The notes below the pieces were generated by a model, which worked only from the letters and a program-made list of their open reading frames with translations, did no database searches and was not told the origin of the DNA. The position numbers and the translations under genes were made by a program. From Escherichia coli (GTDB lineage Bacteria; Pseudomonadota; Gammaproteobacteria; Enterobacterales; Enterobacteriaceae): a stretch of DNA of 19,576 nt. Every line of letters starts with the position of its first letter. The first letter of the stretch is position 1. The stretch is from NCBI RefSeq assembly GCF_003334765.1, contig NZ_QOWT01000051.1. One strand, given 5' to 3'. Below are positions 8,483 through 17,012 of this stretch, piece by piece.

Positions 8483-9340
8483 TCAGGGGGAAGCTGTGGC
8501 CAGCCGGCTGTAATTGCGGTTACGCGACAGAATCATGCGCTCCTTCACACGACGCTCCACTTCACGTTTTACCGCCTCACGACTGGCAGTGAAGCGCCCT
8601 TCCGAGATTTCACGCGTCAGCTGTCGTTTCACCAGGGTGACGATATCCTGACGTTCCCTGCCCGCATCACGACGCGCACGGGCACGCTTTATTCCCCGGG
8701 ACTTAAGCTCTGTCTGGTAACTGCGGAAACGCTCACGCACAAAACGCCAGGCTTTCGCTATCAGTTCATCCATACCCAGGGTATCCAGCCCCTGCTTTTT
8801 GCGCTGTTTGTTTTCCCATACCACACGGCTGCGGCGCGCAGCTGCCACTGCATCCTCAGACACATCAAGGGCGGCAAACAGCGCCAGTGTGAACGTGATA
8901 TCGGTCGGAATGTAGCACCCGATAAGCGGGTCATATTCCGTCTGGTAGGTAATCAGTCCCAGCTCTGACAGGGACGTCAGGGCCCGGGTGGCCCGGGTGA
9001 TGGAGAGTTTTCCTGCACCGGACTCTGTCGCCAGTCCGCACTCAATGGCCAGCGTGGTGATGGAACACTGGACGCGGTTGGCCAGCGGGTCATAATGGAA
9101 ACACAGCCCCTGCAGCAGCGCATCAATAGCCCGTCGACGCAGCACCGGTGGCATGCGTCGACGCAGACCACGCGAACGGGCATGCGCCACATGAATAGCG
9201 AAATCAAAACGGGAGCTGAAGCCCACCGCTTTTTCCATCAGTTTTTCGCAGAACTTCAGCGTTCCGGCACCTTCACGGGGTGTGAACACCGGATTCGGGT
9301 TCTTTACCTGGCGGTAATACGTTTGGTGAAGATCAGTCAC
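8483..9340 (-). CDS. repA1: IncFII replication initiator RepA1
   Basis: Near-identical to the recalled R100/R1 RepA1 ([40 protein letters not shown]...[12 protein letters not shown]). The likely start is the GTG giving MTDLHQ (285 aa); the track ORF 8483..9352 begins four codons earlier. Confidence 0.95.
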
Positions 9341-9407
9341 ACCATCCTGCACTTATGTTGCACAGAAGGAGTGAGCACAGAAAGAAGTCTTGAACTTTTC
9401 CGGTCAT
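9333..9407 (-). CDS. tap: RepA leader peptide Tap (repA6), translationally coupled to repA1
   Basis: 24-codon [27 protein letters not shown] whose TGA overlaps the repA1 GTG start (GTGTGACTG); size and position match the IncFII tap peptide. Confidence 0.6.
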
Positions 9408-9418: not shown

Positions 9419-9425
9419 CCCCGCA

Positions 9426-9511
9426 TAGAGCAACAGCTTCTATGCAGTTTCTTGTTAGCCCCGGTAATCTTCTCTTAGTCGCCAAACCTGGTGAAGATTA
9501 TCGGGGTTTTT
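9426..9511 (+). ncRNA. copA: CopA-like antisense RNA (copy-number control)
   Basis: About 85 nt from the predicted start to an intrinsic terminator: long stem CCCCGGTAATCTTC/GAAGATTATCGGGG followed by TTTTT. Lies in the repA leader between copB and tap, antisense to repA mRNA. Confidence 0.6.
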
Positions 9512-9566
9512 GCTTTTCTGGCTCCTGTAGATCCACATCAGAACCAGTTCCCTGCCACCTTACGGC

Positions 9567-10365: not shown

Positions 10366-11150
10366 CAGTAGTGCATCATGCAGACCTCACGAGTTAATGG
10401 ATTAACGAGTGGGGTCTTCGCATTTCTGAAACCTGCGTCTTATTCAGCCATTCTTCGGTCATCTGCAGCAGTTTTCTTGCATCGTGACTTCTGAGCAACG
10501 GAATGCCAGCCTGCCTCAGAACCTCTTCCAGAAGAGTATCCCAGCATCTGCGTTCCGAACGTAAATGACTGTCATCAGCCAGCTATACTGCTGCAACAAT
10601 ACTGAACGAACGCCGTTCAACGATAACCACATCGACATGCACTGAGATACCATCCTGAATAACTGCCACCACTGGCGCGATCAGATATTAGTTGTCTGGA
10701 GATTCAGGGGACAACCTAACTTGAGCCCGCTATAGCGCGAAGCCGAAAATTATTGTTCGTATGCTCCCGCTGGTCCAGAATGGGAATTCCCTCTGGCTGA
10801 TGTTGAACTGTCATGGAGAATTGAAACTTGTTTAAGACTTTGGCAGCCTACTGTTTTTAATACACCCAATAAGGTATGAAGATGAAACTAGGGAAGTTAA
10901 TACCGCCATGAAAAGATAAATAATACCCGTGGAATATATTTCCTCATGTTACTCTCCATATCAAATAAATGGCACCTGTATTTCAGACATCCTGAATATT
11001 ACAGCACACATTGAACAACACCTTATTTTGTGAAATTAATCACAAAATATAAAATCACGACTTAATACGGAAAAAACTCTGTGCTACTCAGAACTGTCCG
11101 GTCATACTGCCCGACCGGATATTAAAAAAAGCAAATCTCATGCATTATTC

Positions 11151-11195
11151 AGCCTTCTGAATCCCTGGAGTAATGAAGGCTGCTTTTTTCGTTAC
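11151..11195 (+). terminator. Intrinsic terminator-like hairpin
   Basis: Stem CAGCCTTC/GAAGGCTG with a 17-nt loop followed by CTTTTTTC on the plus strand, after an AT-rich region with no convincing ORF. Confidence 0.3.
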
Positions 11196-11413
11196 ACCCT
11201 TCCCCGGCTGCGCCGGTGGCAGTGTTCAGCCCTTTTTCGGGCAAACTGCTGCCAGTCTGTCCGGGGCGCAACACCGGCAGCCCGTCGCCATGCTTCTGCC
11301 GCTTCCATCCAGCGTCCACTGACCTCCAGAATAACGGCCCGGCTTCCGGCACGCTGCCAGCGCCAGACCTGACCGTTCCGTGAACTGTTTCTGAATCCAT
11401 TCATCTTTATCAC
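11192..11413 (-). CDS. Hypothetical small protein downstream of finO
   Basis: 73-aa ORF (MIKMNGFRNSSRNGQVWRWQRAGSRAV...) in the position of the small conserved ORFs found downstream of finO in F-like plasmids; overlaps an alternative-frame ORF at 11149..11400; no recognisable motif. Confidence 0.3.
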   Translation of the reverse strand: MIKMNGFRNSSRNGQVWRWQRAGSRAVILEVSGRWMEAAEAWRRAAGVAPRTDWQQFARKRAEHCHRRSRGRV

Positions 11414-11535: not shown

Positions 11536-12096
11536 TTATTTCTCATCAAGCACGGCCTGAAGTTCTGCCTTTATCCGGTTCTGGCGGCGGATTTTATCCA
11601 GACGCGCTGCGGCATACGCTTCCTCCTCCTGAGAAATATGCTCCGTCACATACCCTTCCGTGTCATACCGGCAGGCACCGGCTTTCATGGCACACAGATA
11701 GCTTTCTGAACGGGTGATGGCCTTCAGCGCCCTGCGCAGTTTTTTATGCGAGAGCGGGATATTCCGCTGCGCCACGTCTTCCAGTAACACGTCCCGGATA
11801 CCGCAGGCCAGAAGCCGGGGCGTGTCACCGTCAAACAATCCCGGCCACCAGGGTTTCAGGGTATTCACGGCCTCATCCAGCGTGGGCAGGTTCAGATAAA
11901 TGGACAGTGCCTGTCTGGCCTGCGCTTTTTTTGCCGCCAGCTCTGCTTCCCGGGCTGCTTTCTCGGCCAGCTTCTGCTTTTTCACCTTCCACTTTGGTGG
12001 CGTGGTGACATTGATGATGGTTTTCCGGCTGCGGACAGGCGTCTCCCCTTCCGTTTTCCGCTTCAGTGTCAGTACCGGTCGCTTCTGCTCTGTCAT
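11536..12096 (-). CDS. finO: Fertility inhibition protein FinO (ProQ/FinO-family RNA chaperone)
   Basis: 186-aa ORF essentially identical to recalled F/R100 FinO ([50 protein letters not shown]...). Confidence 0.95.
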
Positions 12097-12150: not shown

Positions 12151-12500
12151 TCACAGCGCCAGAACGCCCAGCACAGCCAGATGACAGGCGTAGAATACCG
12201 GGAAAAAATCCCCGGGCCAGAAACGGGGTAATGATTTTCCTGCACACGACACCAGACCAACGGTCAGCACCGTCATCAAAAGACCAGCCACCGCCGCTGC
12301 ATCACTGGTGGCAAGGTTAAGCGCCGGAATAACAGCCAGCAGGCAGGCGACCAGCGCCAGACGTTCCGCTCTGTCTTCCGCCCGGTACAGCCGGTGGCTG
12401 ACTGCCAGCATCAGCAGCCCGGCAATGCCGTAACTGGTGCCGGACAAGGGCCCCCACAGGGCCATCAGAAGAATGGCCGCTGCTGTACGCCACCCGGTCT
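12151..12500 (-). pseudogene. traX: traX 3' fragment (pilin acetylase), 5' part deleted
   Basis: Encodes GWRTAAAILLMALWGPLSGTSYGIAGLLMLAVSHRLYRAEDRAERLAL...FYACHLAVLGVLAL, matching the C-terminal 115 or so residues of F TraX. The frame is entered without a start codon at about 12498, where it abuts the traI fragment. Confidence 0.85.
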
Positions 12501-12951
12501 ATCACATAGCGGTCATGACTGCGTGTCTCCGGGTTCCACTGCTCCATCACCATCCCCGGACGGTACATATCCCGCAGATAACGGCTCCGGCTGTCCAGCC
12601 AGACCGGTGACAGTGCAGTCATGGTCACCTCAGGGTGTCCGAGCACGCCCTGCGTTTTCAGCTCACTGCGAATGGCCTGTGTCAGTATGGCCTGTTCCCG
12701 TACCCCGCTGACCTGTGCCACGCTCTCTTCTCCGGCTTTCACGCTGGCCGCAAAATCTCCGGCCAGCCGGGCATAGCGGACATTACGGTCCGGTTCACTG
12801 ATGATGGTGGCCGGTCGCTGTTCTCCCCCCTGCCAGCGATATGTGTTCACCCCGGCATCCTTCATGGCCATCAGCGCACTGCCTGTACCGGTTCGCTGCC
12901 CGCTGTCGGTTATCAGGACCTGTACGTTATGACGTGCGGCACCATCCAGCC
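12501..12951 (-). pseudogene. traI: Internal fragment of relaxase/helicase gene traI
   Basis: In-frame segment ARHNVQVLITDSGQRTGTGSALMAMKDAGVNTYRWQGGEQRPATIISEPDRNVRYARLAGDFAASVKAGEESVAQVSGVREQAILTQAIRSELKTQGVLGHPEVTMTALSPVWLDSRSRYLRDMYRPGMVMEQWNPETRSHDRYVIDRV matches recalled F TraI. Both flanks of track ORF 12317..13129 are out-of-frame read-through. No relaxase N-terminus and no oriT. Confidence 0.7.
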
Positions 12952-13280
12952 GGAATGATGCCACGCTCTGCCAGCATGTTGAGTGCTGCCAGTCGGCGAC
13001 CACCTGCGGCGACACCGTAACGGTCACCAGGCAGGGTATGCACGACCAGATTCTGCAACAGGCCAACGCCCTTAATGGACTCCGCCAGTTCGCTGACGGA
13101 CTCTGCGGAATACGGCACCGTGCGCACATTCAGCGGTGATTTAATCAGTGAAGCCAGCGGCACACTCACTTCCTCCGTCTGCGCCAGCAGGGCAGACAGG
13201 ACTGTTTCCTGCGTTTTTACAGATTTAAGGCTTGCTTTGCGGGTGGTTTCTGGTTCACACTTCGTTACAGGCATAATCAT
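12952..13280 (-). pseudogene. 5' fragment of a ParB-like nuclease-domain gene (F leading region)
   Basis: Track ORF 12927..13280: ParB/Srx-type N-terminal domain (GLLQNLVVHTLPGDRYGVAAGGRRLAALNMLAERGIIPA), then non-homologous residues and a stop right at the junction with the traI fragment. Full-length homologs are much longer. Confidence 0.6.
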
Positions 13281-13621: not shown

Positions 13622-13885
13622 TCAGAACGGAATGTCGTCATCGAAGTCATACGCGGGTTCAGACGGCTGCTGAGGCTCCGGCTGCGCGGCCTTACGTCCA
13701 CGGCCTTTCGTTTTCGCGCCACCTTTTTTCGTCGCGTCAGCACTCTGTGGCTGCCCATTCTGCTGAGGCTTCGGTTGCGCCTGAGCGTTCTGCTGTGGTG
13801 CACTCCCCAGCATCTGCATGGTGCCCGTGGTCTTAACAAGAATTTCAGTGACGTAACGGGTGATACCGTTATCTTCCCAACTACG
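13622..13885 (-). pseudogene. ssb: ssb 3' remnant (plasmid SSB C-terminal region with acidic tail)
   Basis: Track ORF 13622..13924: from about residue 14 it matches the end of the SSB OB-fold and linker ([27 protein letters not shown]...) and ends with the hallmark tail DFDDDIPF. The first 13 residues are not SSB-like and the upstream 270 nt an SSB N-terminus would need are occupied by the methyltransferase gene. Confidence 0.7.
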
Positions 13886-13923
13886 GGCAGACGGGCATTT
13901 ATCCTCCCGCCAGCCCTGTGTCA

Positions 13924-14487
13924 TCAGGCACGCAGACGAATAATCATCGTCGGGACATCGGTATAAGCAAACGTGCCGCGCGGCAGCTCCTCGCGGACGT
14001 CAGAAAACGGTAACAGCTTCTCCTGCTGGCGCGGCCCGTTCAGACAGACGGCAACCAGCACGCCACCCGGACGCAACAGGGAAAAAGCCCGCAGGATATG
14101 CCGGATATCCTGCCCGTGACTGAACGGCGGATTCATGATAACCCGGCTGTAATACTGCACCGGCTGCCATTCCATGAAGTCGCCACACTGAACCCTGACA
14201 CCGTTAAAATTTTCCCGCAGATACCGGACCAGCCCGCTGTTAATCTCCACCGCATCACACATGGCCTCCGGCGCGGTATCCCGAATCGCCCGCAGTATGG
14301 CCCCGGTGCCGGCAGAGGGTTCCAGAATGTGATCACGGTTGCTGATTTCCGCCAGCGTCACCAGGCGATCACAGACCGGGGCAGGAGTCACAAAAAGCTG
14401 AGATTCAGCCCGGATTTCAGCAACCGGCGCGACGTTATCCAGCCTTGCACGCATCAGCCGGATACGTTCTCTTAACTGACTGTGCAT
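13924..14487 (-). CDS. Small class I SAM-dependent methyltransferase (leading-region orphan MTase, amino-MTase NPPF motif)
   Basis: 187-aa ORF with SAM-binding motif [12 protein letters not shown] and catalytic-type motif IMNPPFSHG; its stop overlaps the start of the ssb-remnant ORF. Substrate (DNA vs RNA) cannot be decided from sequence alone. Confidence 0.7.
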
Positions 14488-14533: not shown

Positions 14534-15895
14534 TTATTTCTGTGGGATTTCCGTGATTTTCATGTCGGTAATATACACATTCACCAGGCGGAAATTATTG
14601 TCCATTGTGCGGCGGTAGCGGTATGCCCCGTGGTCTTCTGTCTCTGCCACACTGCGCACGGCCTTACAGTCCCGGGGCAGGGCGGCCCACTGCGCCTTTG
14701 TCATTTCCCGGAAACCTTCCCCCGGATAGTTGACTACCGGCGGACGCTTCGCGGCCTGACTGGCGACGGCAGCCTCTTCTGCCGATGGTGCTTTGTAGTC
14801 CGTGATGCGATCGGGCGTCACTTTCATCGTGCCGCTGTACCCGAGAAAACTGTAATTCGGCGTTGTGACTGAACTCACCGCCCCGTTGCTTTTGTTCACG
14901 CGGATGATGGTCAGCCACTCGCCCCGGCTGAAAACCTGTCCGCCCGGCTCAAAATCCTGTGTCCGGGTAACCACGCCGCCGCTTTCGTCCAGCATGGCAC
15001 GCTCATAGATCAGGCGGTTCTGATAGTGGTTAACCCAGCGTTGCTGATGCTGAATCTGCCGTTCATGACAGCGGATCGCAATTTCGCGGGCCTGCTCCGT
15101 GGTGATGATGTCATCATCCAGGGCCGACCATAACGATCGACTTCCTTCATACTGGCTTTTTTCTGCCGGGCGCGGATACGTATCCAGCGGGAAACAGGCG
15201 CTGATATGGTCATGACTGCTGATGAGTTTTGCCATATTCAGATCCAGCGATTCAGCCCGCCACATCGTCAGATATTTCTGCGACTGCGCGATGGTCTTTT
15301 CAGCCTTGCGCAAATCAGCTTCGATTTTTTTGATACGACGCCAGCGAACGTCCGGGCGTTCTTTATACTTCGCGTGAAGCAGTGCCGACCGCGCCCGCTC
15401 CTCCCAGTATTCCGCACGTTCAAAGAGCATCACGGCACGTTTCATGCCGTTTTCAATACGCTGCGCATCACGACGGGCGCGGCGTTCGCTGTGATGCCCC
15501 ACAAGAATGGGCTGACCGGGCGGGATCATCGCGGCCAGTCTTTCCACTTCATCAAGTGCCTGTGCGGATTCACTGGCCCGCTTTCCGCTGTATCCGGTAA
15601 ACCGCTCCGCCCGTGCTTCCTGACGTTCAGCGAGCGTGCTGTCTTCATCCTCAATCTCTCCGGCAAGTGAGAGGAGCACGTCTTCCCGGCCCGGTGTCCA
15701 GGCTGGCGCGACAAACAGCGCCTGTTTGGGTGCCCAGCGAAAACCGGCATCATGCACTTTTTTATACGTCTCCGGGTCAAGACGTGACGCGGCATACAGG
15801 CGCAGTTTGTTGTCATCCGGTGAGTAGGTCGCGCGGTACATCTGCACAGGGCTGGCGGCTTCCGGGGCGGTCATGGTGATTGCTGCTAATGTCAT
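14534..15895 (-). CDS. Large conserved leading-region protein of unknown function
   Basis: 453-aa ORF, no transmembrane or catalytic motif recognisable by eye, charged and possibly coiled-coil central region. Position and orientation match conserved large ORFs of IncF leading regions; family not assigned. Confidence 0.55.
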   Translation of the reverse strand: MTLAAITMTAPEAASPVQMYRATYSPDDNKLRLYAASRLDPETYKKVHDAGFRWAPKQALFVAPAWTPGREDVLLSLAGEIEDEDSTLAERQEARAERFTGYSGKRASESAQALDEVERLAAMIPPGQPILVGHHSERRARRDAQRIENGMKRAVMLFERAEYWEERARSALLHAKYKERPDVRWRRIKKIEADLRKAEKTIAQSQKYLTMWRAESLDLNMAKLISSHDHISACFPLDTYPRPAEKSQYEGSRSLWSALDDDIITTEQAREIAIRCHERQIQHQQRWVNHYQNRLIYERAMLDESGGVVTRTQDFEPGGQVFSRGEWLTIIRVNKSNGAVSSVTTPNYSFLGYSGTMKVTPDRITDYKAPSAEEAAVASQAAKRPPVVNYPGEGFREMTKAQWAALPRDCKAVRSVAETEDHGAYRYRRTMDNNFRLVNVYITDMKITEIPQK

Positions 15896-15946: not shown

Positions 15947-16177
15947 TCAGTTAAAAGCGCGTTTCAGTTCGAGTGTGCGGAGCACCTGCCCGAAGGCCGT
16001 GTTTTTCATGGCGGGGATGTGTACACCACGCCCCCGGTGAAAACTCCGGGCTATGTGTCGCCCGAAGGCTTTCAGCACGGGGTCAATTTCCGGCGCGGGG
16101 ATGTCTTCGCGTCTGAAACGGGGATGACGGCGGGGCTTTACAGCCGCTGCGGAAGGTGAAACAATGCTTACAGTCAT
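15947..16177 (-). CDS. Hypothetical small basic protein
   Basis: 76-aa ORF upstream of the 453-aa gene on the same strand, overlapped by an 86-aa plus-strand ORF (15899..16159); coding status uncertain. Confidence 0.25.
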   Translation of the reverse strand: MTVSIVSPSAAAVKPRRHPRFRREDIPAPEIDPVLKAFGRHIARSFHRGRGVHIPAMKNTAFGQVLRTLELKRAFN

Positions 16178-16239
16178 AAATGGATTCCTTATGACAGTTT
16201 GGTAACAGTGCCTTAAAGACTGGTTGCACAGTCTCTTCG

Positions 16240-16268
16240 GCGTGGATTAAGCAGGTCCCTGACCTGCT
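16240..16268 (+). terminator. Terminator-like hairpin
   Basis: GCAGGTC-cct-GACCTGC followed by TTTTTTC on the plus strand. Confidence 0.3.
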
Positions 16269-17012
16269 TTTTTCATATCTGCGTCTGACGTTCTCCGGTG
16301 TATTCCTCCTTCTGTTCCTGCGTTCTCATTACCTGCCAGCAGGATGCTGACAGAACACATAAATGCGTATTGCCGGAGCCTGAAATAAATCCTGATTTTT
16401 AAAGAACATCACCCGTTGAGTTTCGGGAGCCGCGGTTTTGACGTTTCGCGGGAACCTGCTGCTGTATTCCCTGTGGTATGAACTTCACCCGTTTGAGAAC
16501 CTTCGCCGCAAGGGGCATCACTGCCACGGCCTGACGCACCTGTCCTGGGCAGAACGCAAAATTTTTTACCGGTTCTTGGGTAAAAAATTTTGTGGGCTGT
16601 TCATTTACCCTGGACAGTCAGTGCGGCAGGTTGTGGCTGTCTATGCCCCCGGCGACAGGGACTCATACGGGTGTGTGGCACCCGGCAGGCAATGAGCAGG
16701 GACCCGCTGCAACGACGTGAAGCGCGGTTTGCGAAACGGCGTTGCGCCTTACATCCCGGCGTCTTTTTGCCGGGATGCCAGGAGCGCAGGCCACGGCGCG
16801 ACAGAGGCGACGCGACCGGAACGATCGCTGCAAGCCAGGGTTTCGCGTCAGGGATGGAAGCCCGCCAGGGCGGAGACAGCTTCGCTGGCTCCGTTCACGA
16901 CAGCCCGCCCCGCCAGGGGGACGCCCGGGAAAGCCATAAACAGGAGAGGAACGGAAAGAAGAAGAGGAAGAAGAGGAAGAGTAAGCGCACCGTGAAGGAC
17001 GTGGAGTAAAAA

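Follow-up and report, generated by a model that had tools for sequence, protein, structure and literature searches.

The window analysed here is a stretch of 19,576 nt from Escherichia coli, and the interval under study (16180-16980) lies in it between a block of leading-region genes and an IS66-family element. This interval is true non-coding DNA in the leading region of a pAA-type (enteroaggregative E. coli) IncF plasmid and is built from known parts: most of an antisense RNA gene, a spacer, a promoter repeat and a purine tract at the IS junction. Only short ORFs occur in it, overlapping and on both strands, and the three longest have no PHROG match, which bears out the non-coding character proposed in an earlier, sequence-only reading of the window. 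The same reading had called the interval GC-rich. This holds for 16728-16980 (GC fraction 0.640), the sole clearly GC-rich section, but not for 16180-16406 (0.454), and the interval as a whole (0.562) compares with 0.543 for the window.

The first gene downstream of the promoter repeat is a 76-aa ORF on the - strand (15947-16177, just outside the interval; WP_000218642.1, 'hypothetical protein'), which is annotated on identical DNA in the plasmids pE1246_1 and pAA and for which no NCBIfam or PHROG family was found. It is followed by a DUF3560 gene (14534-15895) and a methyltransferase gene (13924-14487), and the neighbouring leading genes are all on the - strand. In F, the nic sequence and ssiD share a strand, so the transferred (T) strand corresponds to the + strand of the window. 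The orientation of ssiD and the synteny with pE1246_1 and F place the repeat on the T strand upstream of the leading genes, although the window itself has no oriT. No oriT nic sequence was found in the window, where a fragment of traI is joined to the leading region. The deletions comprise oriT, psiB, hok and most of the tra genes, as well as the ssb-proximal repeat copy of pE1246_1. The closest E. coli records in PLSDB are pAA plasmids with different deletions, and no PLSDB record spans the whole window.

On the other side, the interval is bounded by the IS66-family element (16981-19502), with tnpA and tnpB annotated on the - strand and a frameshifted tnpC. The terminus recognized in the sequence-only reading is genuine: the left inverted repeat (GTAAGCGCACCG..., starting GTAAGCG) begins at 16981, and its partner is present in the complete element of pE1246_1, where the left and right repeats are identical in the first 8 bases and agree in 12 of the first 13. 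In the window the element is interrupted at about 19503 by an end which, judging from its inverted repeat, we take to be of IS5 type. An 8-bp target-site duplication was not found between the pE1246_1 flanks (GAGGAAGA and AAACCAGA); the far end lies outside the window. The IS66 element therefore marks a rearrangement junction and not a simple insertion.

At the gene-proximal end, positions 16172-16272 of the + strand match the Rfam family RF02875 (AS-pc01), a cis-antisense small RNA with three hairpins, over model positions 1-99 of 99 (72.0 bits, E 4.8e-13). As this score falls 7 bits short of the gathering score of 79 bits, we name the RNA AS-pc01-like and regard it as a diverged homologue and not as a member at the curated threshold. 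The same match is found in pE1246_1, and a published AS-pc01 qPCR primer, compared by eye, matches exactly at 16241-16261. Between 15900 and 17050 a single promoter-like site was seen, a sigma-70-type promoter on the + strand (16137-16165; TTTACA-17-AACAAT, the -10 preceded by TG). It stops 7 nt short of the match, and the start that it predicts, at about 16172, is position 1 of the match. The third RF02875 hairpin is an intrinsic terminator on the + strand with a 9-bp stem, a 3-nt loop and a T run (16249-16275). The RNA thus appears as an independent transcription unit with its own predicted promoter and terminator. It is antisense to the 76-aa ORF, overlapping its start codon (16175-16177), its Shine-Dalgarno sequence (about 16186-16190) and its 5' UTR.

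The terminator is the hairpin that had been noticed at 16240-16268 in the sequence-only reading; the stem-loop occupies 16249-16269 and the T run continues to 16275. It does not belong to the single-strand structures but is the terminator of the antisense RNA gene, which that reading had missed. One terminator-like site was seen against a mean of 1.2 in shuffles, so the significance of this hairpin comes from its position at the 3' end of the AS-pc01 match. A role as a stop for leading-gene transcripts was also considered and rejected, the T run being on the + strand only.

Between the antisense gene and the promoter repeat lies an AT-richer segment (16273-16406), comprising spacer and 5' UTR, which folds without significant structure (z of -1.2 on the + strand and -0.3 on the - strand). 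It contains an orphan Shine-Dalgarno-like sequence, CTCCTTCTGTT at 16304-16314 on the + strand (AAGGAGG on the - strand), which lacks a suitably spaced start codon. A small ORF or a decayed gene was also considered for 16180-16406 and rejected, as this segment offers only a 37-aa ORF without a ribosome-binding site in addition to the orphan Shine-Dalgarno.

The core of the interval is a repeat unit of the Frpo/ssiD type, class 1 ('ssp1') of the single-stranded-DNA promoters, at about 16407-16800 on the + strand. Alignment to the F Frpo and ssi sequences, the comparison proposed in the sequence-only reading, gave 92.8% nucleotide identity to Frpo2 and 84.5% to Frpo1/ssiD for 16407-16984, over about 540-585 bp. 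By BLASTn, ssiD (D90178) aligns to 16418-16751 with an E value of 3.5e-73, and weaker matches are found to Frpo3 (E 4.9e-16) and Frpo2 (E 8.7e-13) of ColIb-P9. In the literature, membership of the class is defined by a BLASTn E value of 1e-6 or lower against five known sequences, and the window element falls within this limit. Its segment 16407-16662 is 90.3% identical to the F Frpo2 construct that has been used experimentally and that drove anti-CRISPR expression (PMC11541004). The window has this single Frpo/ssi site, on the + strand, and no further copies of the element were found elsewhere in it; pE1246_1 carries three copies, each upstream of a leading gene block. The same sequence as in the window occurs in several plasmids and is 90-99% conserved in thousands, and in alignment the window copy appears as a mosaic of other copies.

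As a single strand, 16430-16727 folds with DNA parameters into a long, stable and imperfect hairpin of 113 pairs, as expected of the class, with the loop GGTTCTTG at 16571-16578 and interruptions that include the bulges TTCATTTA (16600-16607) and TCA (16618-16620). Fold energies range from -90.7 to -94.7 kcal/mol (-93.9 in the fold that gave the pairing ladder), and -90.7 kcal/mol compares with -52.2 +/- 4.1 for shuffled sequences (z of -9.4). This hairpin is the most stable among the copies compared. The fold of the T strand exceeds that of the complement in stability by 9 kcal/mol here, and by 6-9 kcal/mol across the window copy and both F copies. Rfam has no family for the main hairpin itself.

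Covariation supports the same fold. Across ten family members, 95% of cells are paired as against 39-50% in slid controls, and 21 pairs show changes on both sides as against 3-7 in the controls, a value reached by none of 500 shuffles. The stem has thus been kept by compensatory changes in copies from F, ColIb-P9, Serratia and metagenomes, which speaks for selection acting on the fold and against mere repetition. At the apex lies an A/T-rich palindrome (CGCAAAATTTTTTACC / GGTAAAAAATTTTGTG, 16550-16599), an inverted repeat that is nearly invariant in the family alignment and that is, going by the description in PMC11541004, a candidate UP-like element. Two small conserved hairpins follow on the 3' side (16744-16799; 16744-16760 with 16769-16785, and GCGC 16784-16787 with 16796-16799). 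Both belong to the 328-nt unit common to ColIb-P9; they are helices 12 and 13 of the alignment, and helix 12 shows compensatory changes (UA to CG in four sequences, CG to AU in three).

In a promoter of this class, the -35 and -10 hexamers are expected to be rebuilt within the paired stem, with unpaired bases close by. When ten family members were scanned linearly with a PWM and the positions transferred to the alignment, no hexamer pair conserved from F to ColIb-P9 emerged, and inspection of the pairing ladder by hand gave no candidate that is both consensus-like and conserved over this range. One candidate -35 is TGGACA on the 3' arm (16611-16616, + strand), which pairs with TGTCC at 16541-16545 in invariant columns and forms with it the best-conserved double-stranded block; from TGGACA to CTGTCT there are 17 stacked base pairs if the TCA bulge is extrahelical. 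Other hexamer candidates are TTGAGA-17-CATCAC (16493-16521) and TTGACG (16437-16442). The boundary of the functional Frpo2 construct suggests that the promoter lies within about the top 70 bp of the stem.

The last part of the interval is a tract of 95% A+G on the + strand (16940-16980) which ends, immediately before the IS terminus, in the tandem repeat GAAGAAGAG (2.6 copies, 16958-16980) seen in the sequence-only reading. Nowhere else in the window does a stretch of 60 nt contain 85% purine or more (0.15% of positions). The tract is unstructured as a single strand (dG 0.0), and on the RNA-sense strand it is C/U-rich and G-poor. Since F has a longer version of it, the tract is native sequence common to F and is not linked to the IS, a point missed earlier. 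Each of the six Frpo copies examined has a comparable purine-rich tract on its 3' side, 190-290 nt from the hairpin, even where the flank is non-homologous.

The purine tract is also the end of the one ORF in the interval that has been annotated. This ORF (MEARQGG..., 'hypothetical protein') starts with ATGGAAGCC at 16854 on the + strand and is cut by the IS66 element after 16980. In favour of a protein gene, here truncated by the element, RefSeq lists WP_000388237.1, of 118 aa, at the corresponding position of F and a pseudogene, likewise truncated, in pAA, and the ORF is open in five of six copies. We consider such a gene very improbable. Depending on the copy, the ORF is 43, 59, 103 or 118 aa long, a -1/+1 frameshift pair and a deletion of 48 nt occur among the copies, and one copy lacks it altogether. 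Its product is K/R-rich and of low complexity because it is translated from the purine tract, its 5' part overlaps DNA conserved as repeat unit, and its direction is opposite to that of every leading-region gene. No PHROG family was found for the ORFs tested, that is, the three longest in the interval and the F 118-aa protein, so that homology search revealed no conserved protein gene here. The MEARQGG ORF is probably not a gene and its annotation spurious. For the same reasons, namely the lack of PHROG matches and the frameshifted ORF of 43 to 118 aa that runs against the leading genes, the suggestion of the sequence-only reading that the interval might be a decayed gene is not supported. Its other suggestion, of single-strand promoter or initiation structures, is borne out by the homology to F, the long hairpin of the T strand and the compensatory changes across plasmid families.

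We therefore regard the interval, with considerable confidence, as regulatory DNA in front of a leading-gene block, with a copy of a Frpo/ssiD class 1 single-stranded-DNA promoter as its core. For F Frpo1 and Frpo2 and for the ssi sequences of ColIb-P9, it has been described that during conjugation the transferred strand reaches the recipient alone and that an element of ~300 nt folds into a long imperfect hairpin mimicking a duplex promoter (PMC9849209, PMC11541004, PMC12672017, bioRxiv 10.64898/2026.01.09.698686); in these homologues the sigma-70 RNA polymerase uses the single strand and not the duplex (PMC9849209, PMC12672017, bioRxiv 10.64898/2026.01.09.698686). By analogy, host sigma-70 RNA polymerase would bind the folded + strand and transcribe along it towards its 5' end, leftward into the 76-aa ORF, the DUF3560 gene and the methyltransferase gene. 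This leftward transcription is suggested by how the element is placed and oriented, by its fold and by its 90-93% identity to F Frpo2, which has been tested experimentally. In the homologues, the transcripts can also prime synthesis of the complementary strand, and once the DNA has become duplex, the hairpin is gone and the promoter off. The antisense RNA is expected to damp translation of the 76-aa ORF when the plasmid is double-stranded.

It could be argued that the hairpin is a priming signal for the complementary strand, a single-strand initiation site, and not a promoter for gene expression. This would fit the first isolation of ssiD as a single-strand initiation sequence and the report that ssp1/Frpo transcripts prime conversion in vivo (bioRxiv 10.64898/2026.01.09.698686); however, priming is compatible with the promoter interpretation, as the published model gives one RNA-polymerase transcript both roles, and we think it most unlikely that priming is the only function. 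Still less credible is that the repeat serves chiefly for recombination, or is decayed junk, and shuffles leading modules while the copy itself is inactive. Frpo repeats have indeed been implicated in gain and loss of a 9.7-kb leading module (PMC3817090), a risk of recombination between Frpo1 and Frpo2 has been noted (PMC9849209), and the window copy is a mosaic in a heavily deleted leading region. An inactive copy is nevertheless hard to reconcile with the stability of its hairpin, with its identity in several plasmids and high conservation in thousands, and with a structure kept by compensatory changes.

Beyond the promoter itself, we tentatively raise the possibility, which we hold to be a rather unlikely one, that the purine-rich tract and a timed two-step switch are functional parts of the system; neither is described in the Frpo/ssi literature examined. 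Being C-rich and G-poor on the RNA-sense strand, the tract could act as a Rho-loading site, where transcripts from an upstream operon would be stopped before they unzip the hairpin. Alternatively, it might insulate the fold as a spacer free of structure, presumably covered with SSB. In the two-step switch, the hairpin promoter would act for as long as the DNA stays single-stranded; after duplex conversion the antisense RNA, which covers the ribosome-binding site of the first gene, would come on and mop up leftover mRNA.

With oriT and most of tra lost, conjugative presentation of the single strand is unlikely in this plasmid, and the window copy is probably a vestige that is never presented single-stranded by conjugation. 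A virulence plasmid without oriT thus shows a decaying leading region in which the hairpin promoter is still intact, and such copies could provide a natural test of how fast the structure erodes after conjugation is lost. Frpo-type promoters were reportedly described in 1997; a demonstration that they function in vivo is reported for 2023, and a catalogue covering thousands of plasmids for 2024. The window element is an ordinary, already described one and matters little as a discovery; its use is for annotation, where about 800 bp of junk-like DNA resolve into two known non-coding elements and an IS junction.

In comparison to known systems, the antisense RNA resembles AS-pc01 (RF02875, antisense to pHK01_035) over its full length, with all three hairpins including the terminator, and likewise faces, as an antisense RNA, the 5' end of a small ORF in the leading region. 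It differs from AS-pc01 in several non-canonical pairs in the second hairpin and scores 72 bits. The promoter repeat is closest to F Frpo2 (ssp1b, upstream of ssb) and Frpo1/ssiD (ssp1a, upstream of ygeA), with which it has in common the long hairpin with an A/T-rich apex, the strand relative to the genes and the nic site, and a 3' extension with small hairpins and a purine tract. In contrast to F, the window copy precedes a gene block (76-aa ORF, DUF3560, methyltransferase) that F does not have, adjoins an IS66 element and resides on a plasmid without oriT. Its first start codon is also farther away, 230 nt from the repeat as against about 35-60 nt for ssb in F, with the antisense RNA gene between, and the 5' part of the unit (16400-16490) is closer to Serratia and metagenome variants than to F.

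ColIb-P9 ssi1-3/Frpo1-3, the 328-nt repeats of IncI1, are more distant relatives. Their hairpin core is alignable with that of the window copy, and compensatory changes have maintained its pairs. Both also have the apex palindrome, the CTGGAC/GTCC block and the two hairpins on the 3' side, but the identity is only about 78-79% over 80-100 nt (BLASTn), and the lower stem and the 5' flank are unrelated. With the class 2 and class 3 promoters (ssp2 and ssp3 of pESBL and F), the shared feature is the principle of a leading-region hairpin promoter that is active on the single strand only. Sequence homology between these classes and class 1 is reported to be absent (PMC12672017); the window element, as judged from its sequence, clearly belongs to class 1.

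The core of the interval 16180-16980, which runs from a 76-aa ORF (15947-16177, - strand) to the left terminus of an IS66-family element, is a copy of Frpo/ssiD, the class-1 single-stranded-DNA promoter of F-type plasmids. Alignment of 16407-16984 to the F plasmid gave 92.8% identity to the region directly upstream of ssb and 84.5% to the region upstream of ygeA, corresponding to Frpo2 and Frpo1, respectively, in Couturier et al. (PMC9849209). Samuel et al. (PMC11541004) list five reference Frpo/ssi sequences in their Supplementary Table 2; these were compared with the window under the authors' BLASTn criterion of E <= 1e-6. F ssiD (D90178) matched at 16418-16751 on the + strand with an E value of 3.5e-73, below this threshold, and Frpo2 and Frpo3 of the IncI1 plasmid ColIb-P9 matched the hairpin core with E values of 1e-12 to 1e-16; no further Frpo/ssi site was found in the window with these five sequences. 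The Frpo2 segment which, placed before acrIIA4, rescued conjugation about 225-fold against Cas9 (PMC11541004) aligns with 16407-16662 at 90.3% identity. In the related plasmid pE1246_1 (its coordinates are prefixed L001), the 440-470-bp unit is present three times, always upstream of a leading gene block; the three copies are 96%, 91% and 100% identical to that of the window.

The window copy is a mosaic. Its 5' part (16400-16490) is like Serratia and insect-metagenome variants (TAAAGAACATCACCCGTTGAG...); in its hairpin core, the window copy does not differ from the ygeA-side copy of pE1246_1 and hardly differs from F Frpo2. This makeup suggests that gene conversion has occurred among copies.

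As single-stranded DNA, the + strand is predicted to fold into one long imperfect hairpin of 113 pairs (16430-16727) with the loop GGTTCTTG at 16571-16578. Its energy is -90.7 to -94.7 kcal/mol, varying with the exact ends, compared to -52.2 +/- 4.1 kcal/mol for shuffled sequences (z = -9.4). The hairpin is 9 kcal/mol more stable on the + strand than on the complement (8 for F Frpo1 and 6 for F Frpo2), and of these three copies that of the window has the most stable fold. A family alignment of ten members, including the window, the two other pE1246_1 copies, F Frpo1 and Frpo2, ColIb-P9 Frpo1-3, one Serratia and one insect-metagenome candidate, yielded a consensus structure of 76 pairs, 21 of which stay paired via changes on both sides, as compared to 3-7 in controls with partners slid by 1-3 columns. 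Paired cells amount to 95% in this alignment and to 39-50% in the slid controls, and for four of the five measures none of the 500 shuffles reached the observed value. Two smaller conserved hairpins lie 3' of the main one, at 16744-16785 (with compensatory changes) and 16784-16799, both being part of a 328-nt unit common to ColIb-P9.

The F nic-site sequence is on the - strand of the F record, and F ssiD and the window + strand align to the same strand, so that the transferred strand is the window + strand, the template of the leading genes encoded on the - strand. In the published model, the single strand folds, rebuilds the -35/-10 boxes and recruits sigma-70 RNA polymerase, resulting in early and transient expression (PMC9849209, PMC11541004, PMC12672017). 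Transcripts can also prime complementary-strand synthesis, and duplex conversion turns the promoter off (bioRxiv 10.64898/2026.01.09.698686). These steps are demonstrated for the F and IncI1 homologues, and we infer them for the window copy from its homology, fold and position. A polymerase that loads at the hairpin would read the transferred strand in the 3'-to-5' direction and so move leftwards, into the 76-aa ORF, DUF3560 and the methyltransferase gene.

When the hits of a PWM scan were mapped to alignment columns, no -35/-10 pair was found that resembles the consensus and is also conserved between F and ColIb-P9. The functional Frpo2 construct stops at the equivalent of 16662 and lacks the lower third of the 3' arm, which argues that the promoter would lie within the upper roughly 70 bp of the stem. 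The best-conserved duplex block in this upper stem is TGGACA (16611-16616), paired with TGTCC. If the TCA bulge (16618-16620) is extrahelical, there are exactly 17 stacked pairs from this block to CTGTCT (16637-16642), which lies among mismatches and is unlike TATAAT. The second candidate pair, TTGAGA-17-CATCAC (16493-16521), reads cATAcT with the bulged C16519 ignored; the -35 partner of CATCAC is missing from the functional construct. At 16516-16522, the 1991 ssiD entry D90178 has GGGGCATACTGCC, as compared to GGGGCATCACTGCC in the F genome record and all other copies. The extra C relative to D90178 is predicted to be bulged, and CATACT in D90178 alters the -10 likeness of the hexamer.

The sequence-only reading had described the interval as GC-rich and non-coding, with a terminator-like hairpin and a purine repeat at an IS66 insertion site, and had raised the idea of a single-strand promoter. 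This idea is borne out by the Frpo/ssiD homology, fold and position. The observation itself is confirmed with the GC content corrected, as only the right third is GC-rich (0.454 at 16180-16406, 0.576 at 16407-16727 and 0.640 at 16728-16980; whole window 0.543). Short overlapping ORFs only are present on both strands, the three longest without a PHROG family match; a hairpin followed by a T run was found at 16249-16269 (+ strand); GAAGAAGAG is repeated 2.6 times at 16958-16980 within a stretch of 95% purine (16940-16980); and the inverted repeat GTAAGCGCACCG... begins at 16981.

From 16728 the repeat continues to the IS, the match to F Frpo2 running through 16984 and that to Frpo1 through 16947. 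Since the purine tract is present in F, where it is longer, it is older than the IS in the window. It is the only window site with 60 nt at 85% purine, and no single-strand structure is predicted in 16930-16980 (dG 0.0 on either strand). A purine-rich tract (0.77-0.98 over 60 nt) lies 190-290 nt beyond the hairpin in all six copies compared and is kept even with a non-homologous flank, as with the CAGTAG repeats beside the pE1246_1 ssb copy. Its RNA-sense strand is C-rich, G-poor and unstructured. It may be hypothesized that the tract acts as a Rho-loading or insulating element.

An ORF is annotated from ATGGAAGCC (16854, + strand), of 118 aa in F and as a pseudogene in pAA, a plasmid type of enteroaggregative E. 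coli. We do not think that it is a gene. Elsewhere the ORF spans 43, 59, 103 or 118 aa, and one copy has none; it varies by a frameshift pair and by a 48-nt deletion that lies between direct repeats CCCGCCAGGG, its product is of low complexity and its orientation is against all leading genes. The direct repeats CCCGCCAGGG are located at 16861-16870 and 16909-16918, 48 bp apart. This spacing coincides with the 48-nt deletion in the ygeA-side pE1246_1 copy (L001 about 1320), which suggests slippage or recombination between the repeats.

The left part of the interval appears to be a second known element, a diverged copy of a catalogued antisense RNA. The Rfam family AS-pc01 (RF02875, "antisense to pHK01_035") matches 16172-16272 (+ strand) over the full model length with 72 bits (E 4.8e-13), 7 bits under the gathering score of 79. 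The sole sigma-70-like site of the region lies at 16137-16165 on the + strand (TTTACA-17-AACAAT, with TG ahead of the -10) and ends 7 bases before the match; the sole terminator-like site is the last hairpin of the match. The predicted RNA is complementary to the 76-aa ORF at its start codon, Shine-Dalgarno sequence and 5' UTR. Positions 16241-16261 are identical to a published AS-pc01 qPCR primer; qPCR has shown AS-pc01 RNA to be present in outer-membrane vesicles from one E. coli strain (PMC12370729). In pE1246_1 and F, no such element adjoins the other Frpo copies; it was found at this locus only. As its template strand is present only after complementary-strand synthesis, the RNA would be expected to act after duplex conversion. 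The terminator lacks a T run leftwards and so should not halt the leading-gene transcript. An orphan ribosome-binding-site motif at 16304-16314, CTCCTTCTGTT on the + strand and AAGGAGG on the - strand, also precedes ssb right after Frpo2 in F. In the window it has no start codon at a usable distance and may be a relic of a gene start once directly after the promoter.

The window DNA comes from an IncF plasmid. The 1121 bases around the interval match at least 5000 plasmid records, mainly conjugative IncF plasmids of Escherichia, Klebsiella and Salmonella, with 100% identity in five among the matches listed. Among E. coli records, those of pAA plasmids from enteroaggregative strains are closest, and no plasmid record spanning the whole window was found. 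In pE1246_1, an IncFIA/FIB plasmid carrying aatD, the leading genes (DUF932 (ygeB-like), hok, psiB, DUF905, ssb, methyltransferase, DUF3560 and the 76-aa ORF) are all on one strand, and this order is repeated in a Klebsiella plasmid. Rfam places group II intron domains at L001 15873-17653 (- strand), outside the stretch common with the window.

The window leading region is a remnant. At about 12947 it is joined to a fragment from inside traI (ORF 12317-13129), which is followed by finO and the IncFII replicon with RepA (8483-9352, - strand) and the CopA antisense RNA (9425-9515, + strand). With only about 3.5 kb between this replicon and the remnant, a large part of the tra region is missing. 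Compared with pE1246_1, 1088 bp are deleted at 13884-13887, with a 4-base overlap at the junction (compare L001 4956-5896 and 6985 onwards); the deletion takes the 5' part of ssb, its preceding Frpo copy and small ORFs. psiB, hok, ygeA/B, oriT and the F-type nic sequence were not found in the window. The transfer system of this plasmid is decayed. Near finO (11536-12096), AS-pc02 ("antisense to pHK01_099") gives a strong Rfam match (214 bits, 11111-11295, + strand). Cargo at 239-4227 comprises a MocR-like PLP-dependent regulator (239-1537, - strand) and a diverged cytochrome bd oxidase pair (1817-3217 and 3217-4227, + strand), of which subunit I scores far under the NCBIfam cut-offs for chromosomal enzymes and subunit II above the general cydB cut-off and far under both enzyme-specific ones. 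A 393-aa ORF (4460-5641, - strand) matches no NCBIfam family at E <= 0.001 and adjoins a DnaQ-like 3'-5' exonuclease ORF (6093-6974, - strand).

In pE1246_1 the IS66-family element is 2710 bp long (L001 10082-12791) with matching inverted repeats. Its flanks, GAGGAAGA and AAACCAGA, show no 8-bp duplication, and therefore the element marks a rearrangement, by which the upstream leading region (ardB/klcA and DUF1380 genes), present in F and in the Klebsiella plasmid, was removed. The window copy of the element is broken at about 19503, after ...GAGACCTAA, by GGAAGGTGCGAATAAGCGGGG... (19503-19576), which we take to be a terminal inverted repeat of IS5, with CTAA as the target; this insertion is absent from pE1246_1, to which identity ends at 19502.

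The Frpo promoter family was reportedly first described in 1997. It was validated in vivo in 2023 (PMC9849209), and a 2024 survey counted 13,089 occurrences in 6,006 conjugative elements (PMC11541004). The interval is ordinary and already known, being a copy of a known promoter family with a diverged catalogued antisense RNA and an IS junction; a small remaining interest lies in the conserved purine tract and the promoter-plus-antisense arrangement.
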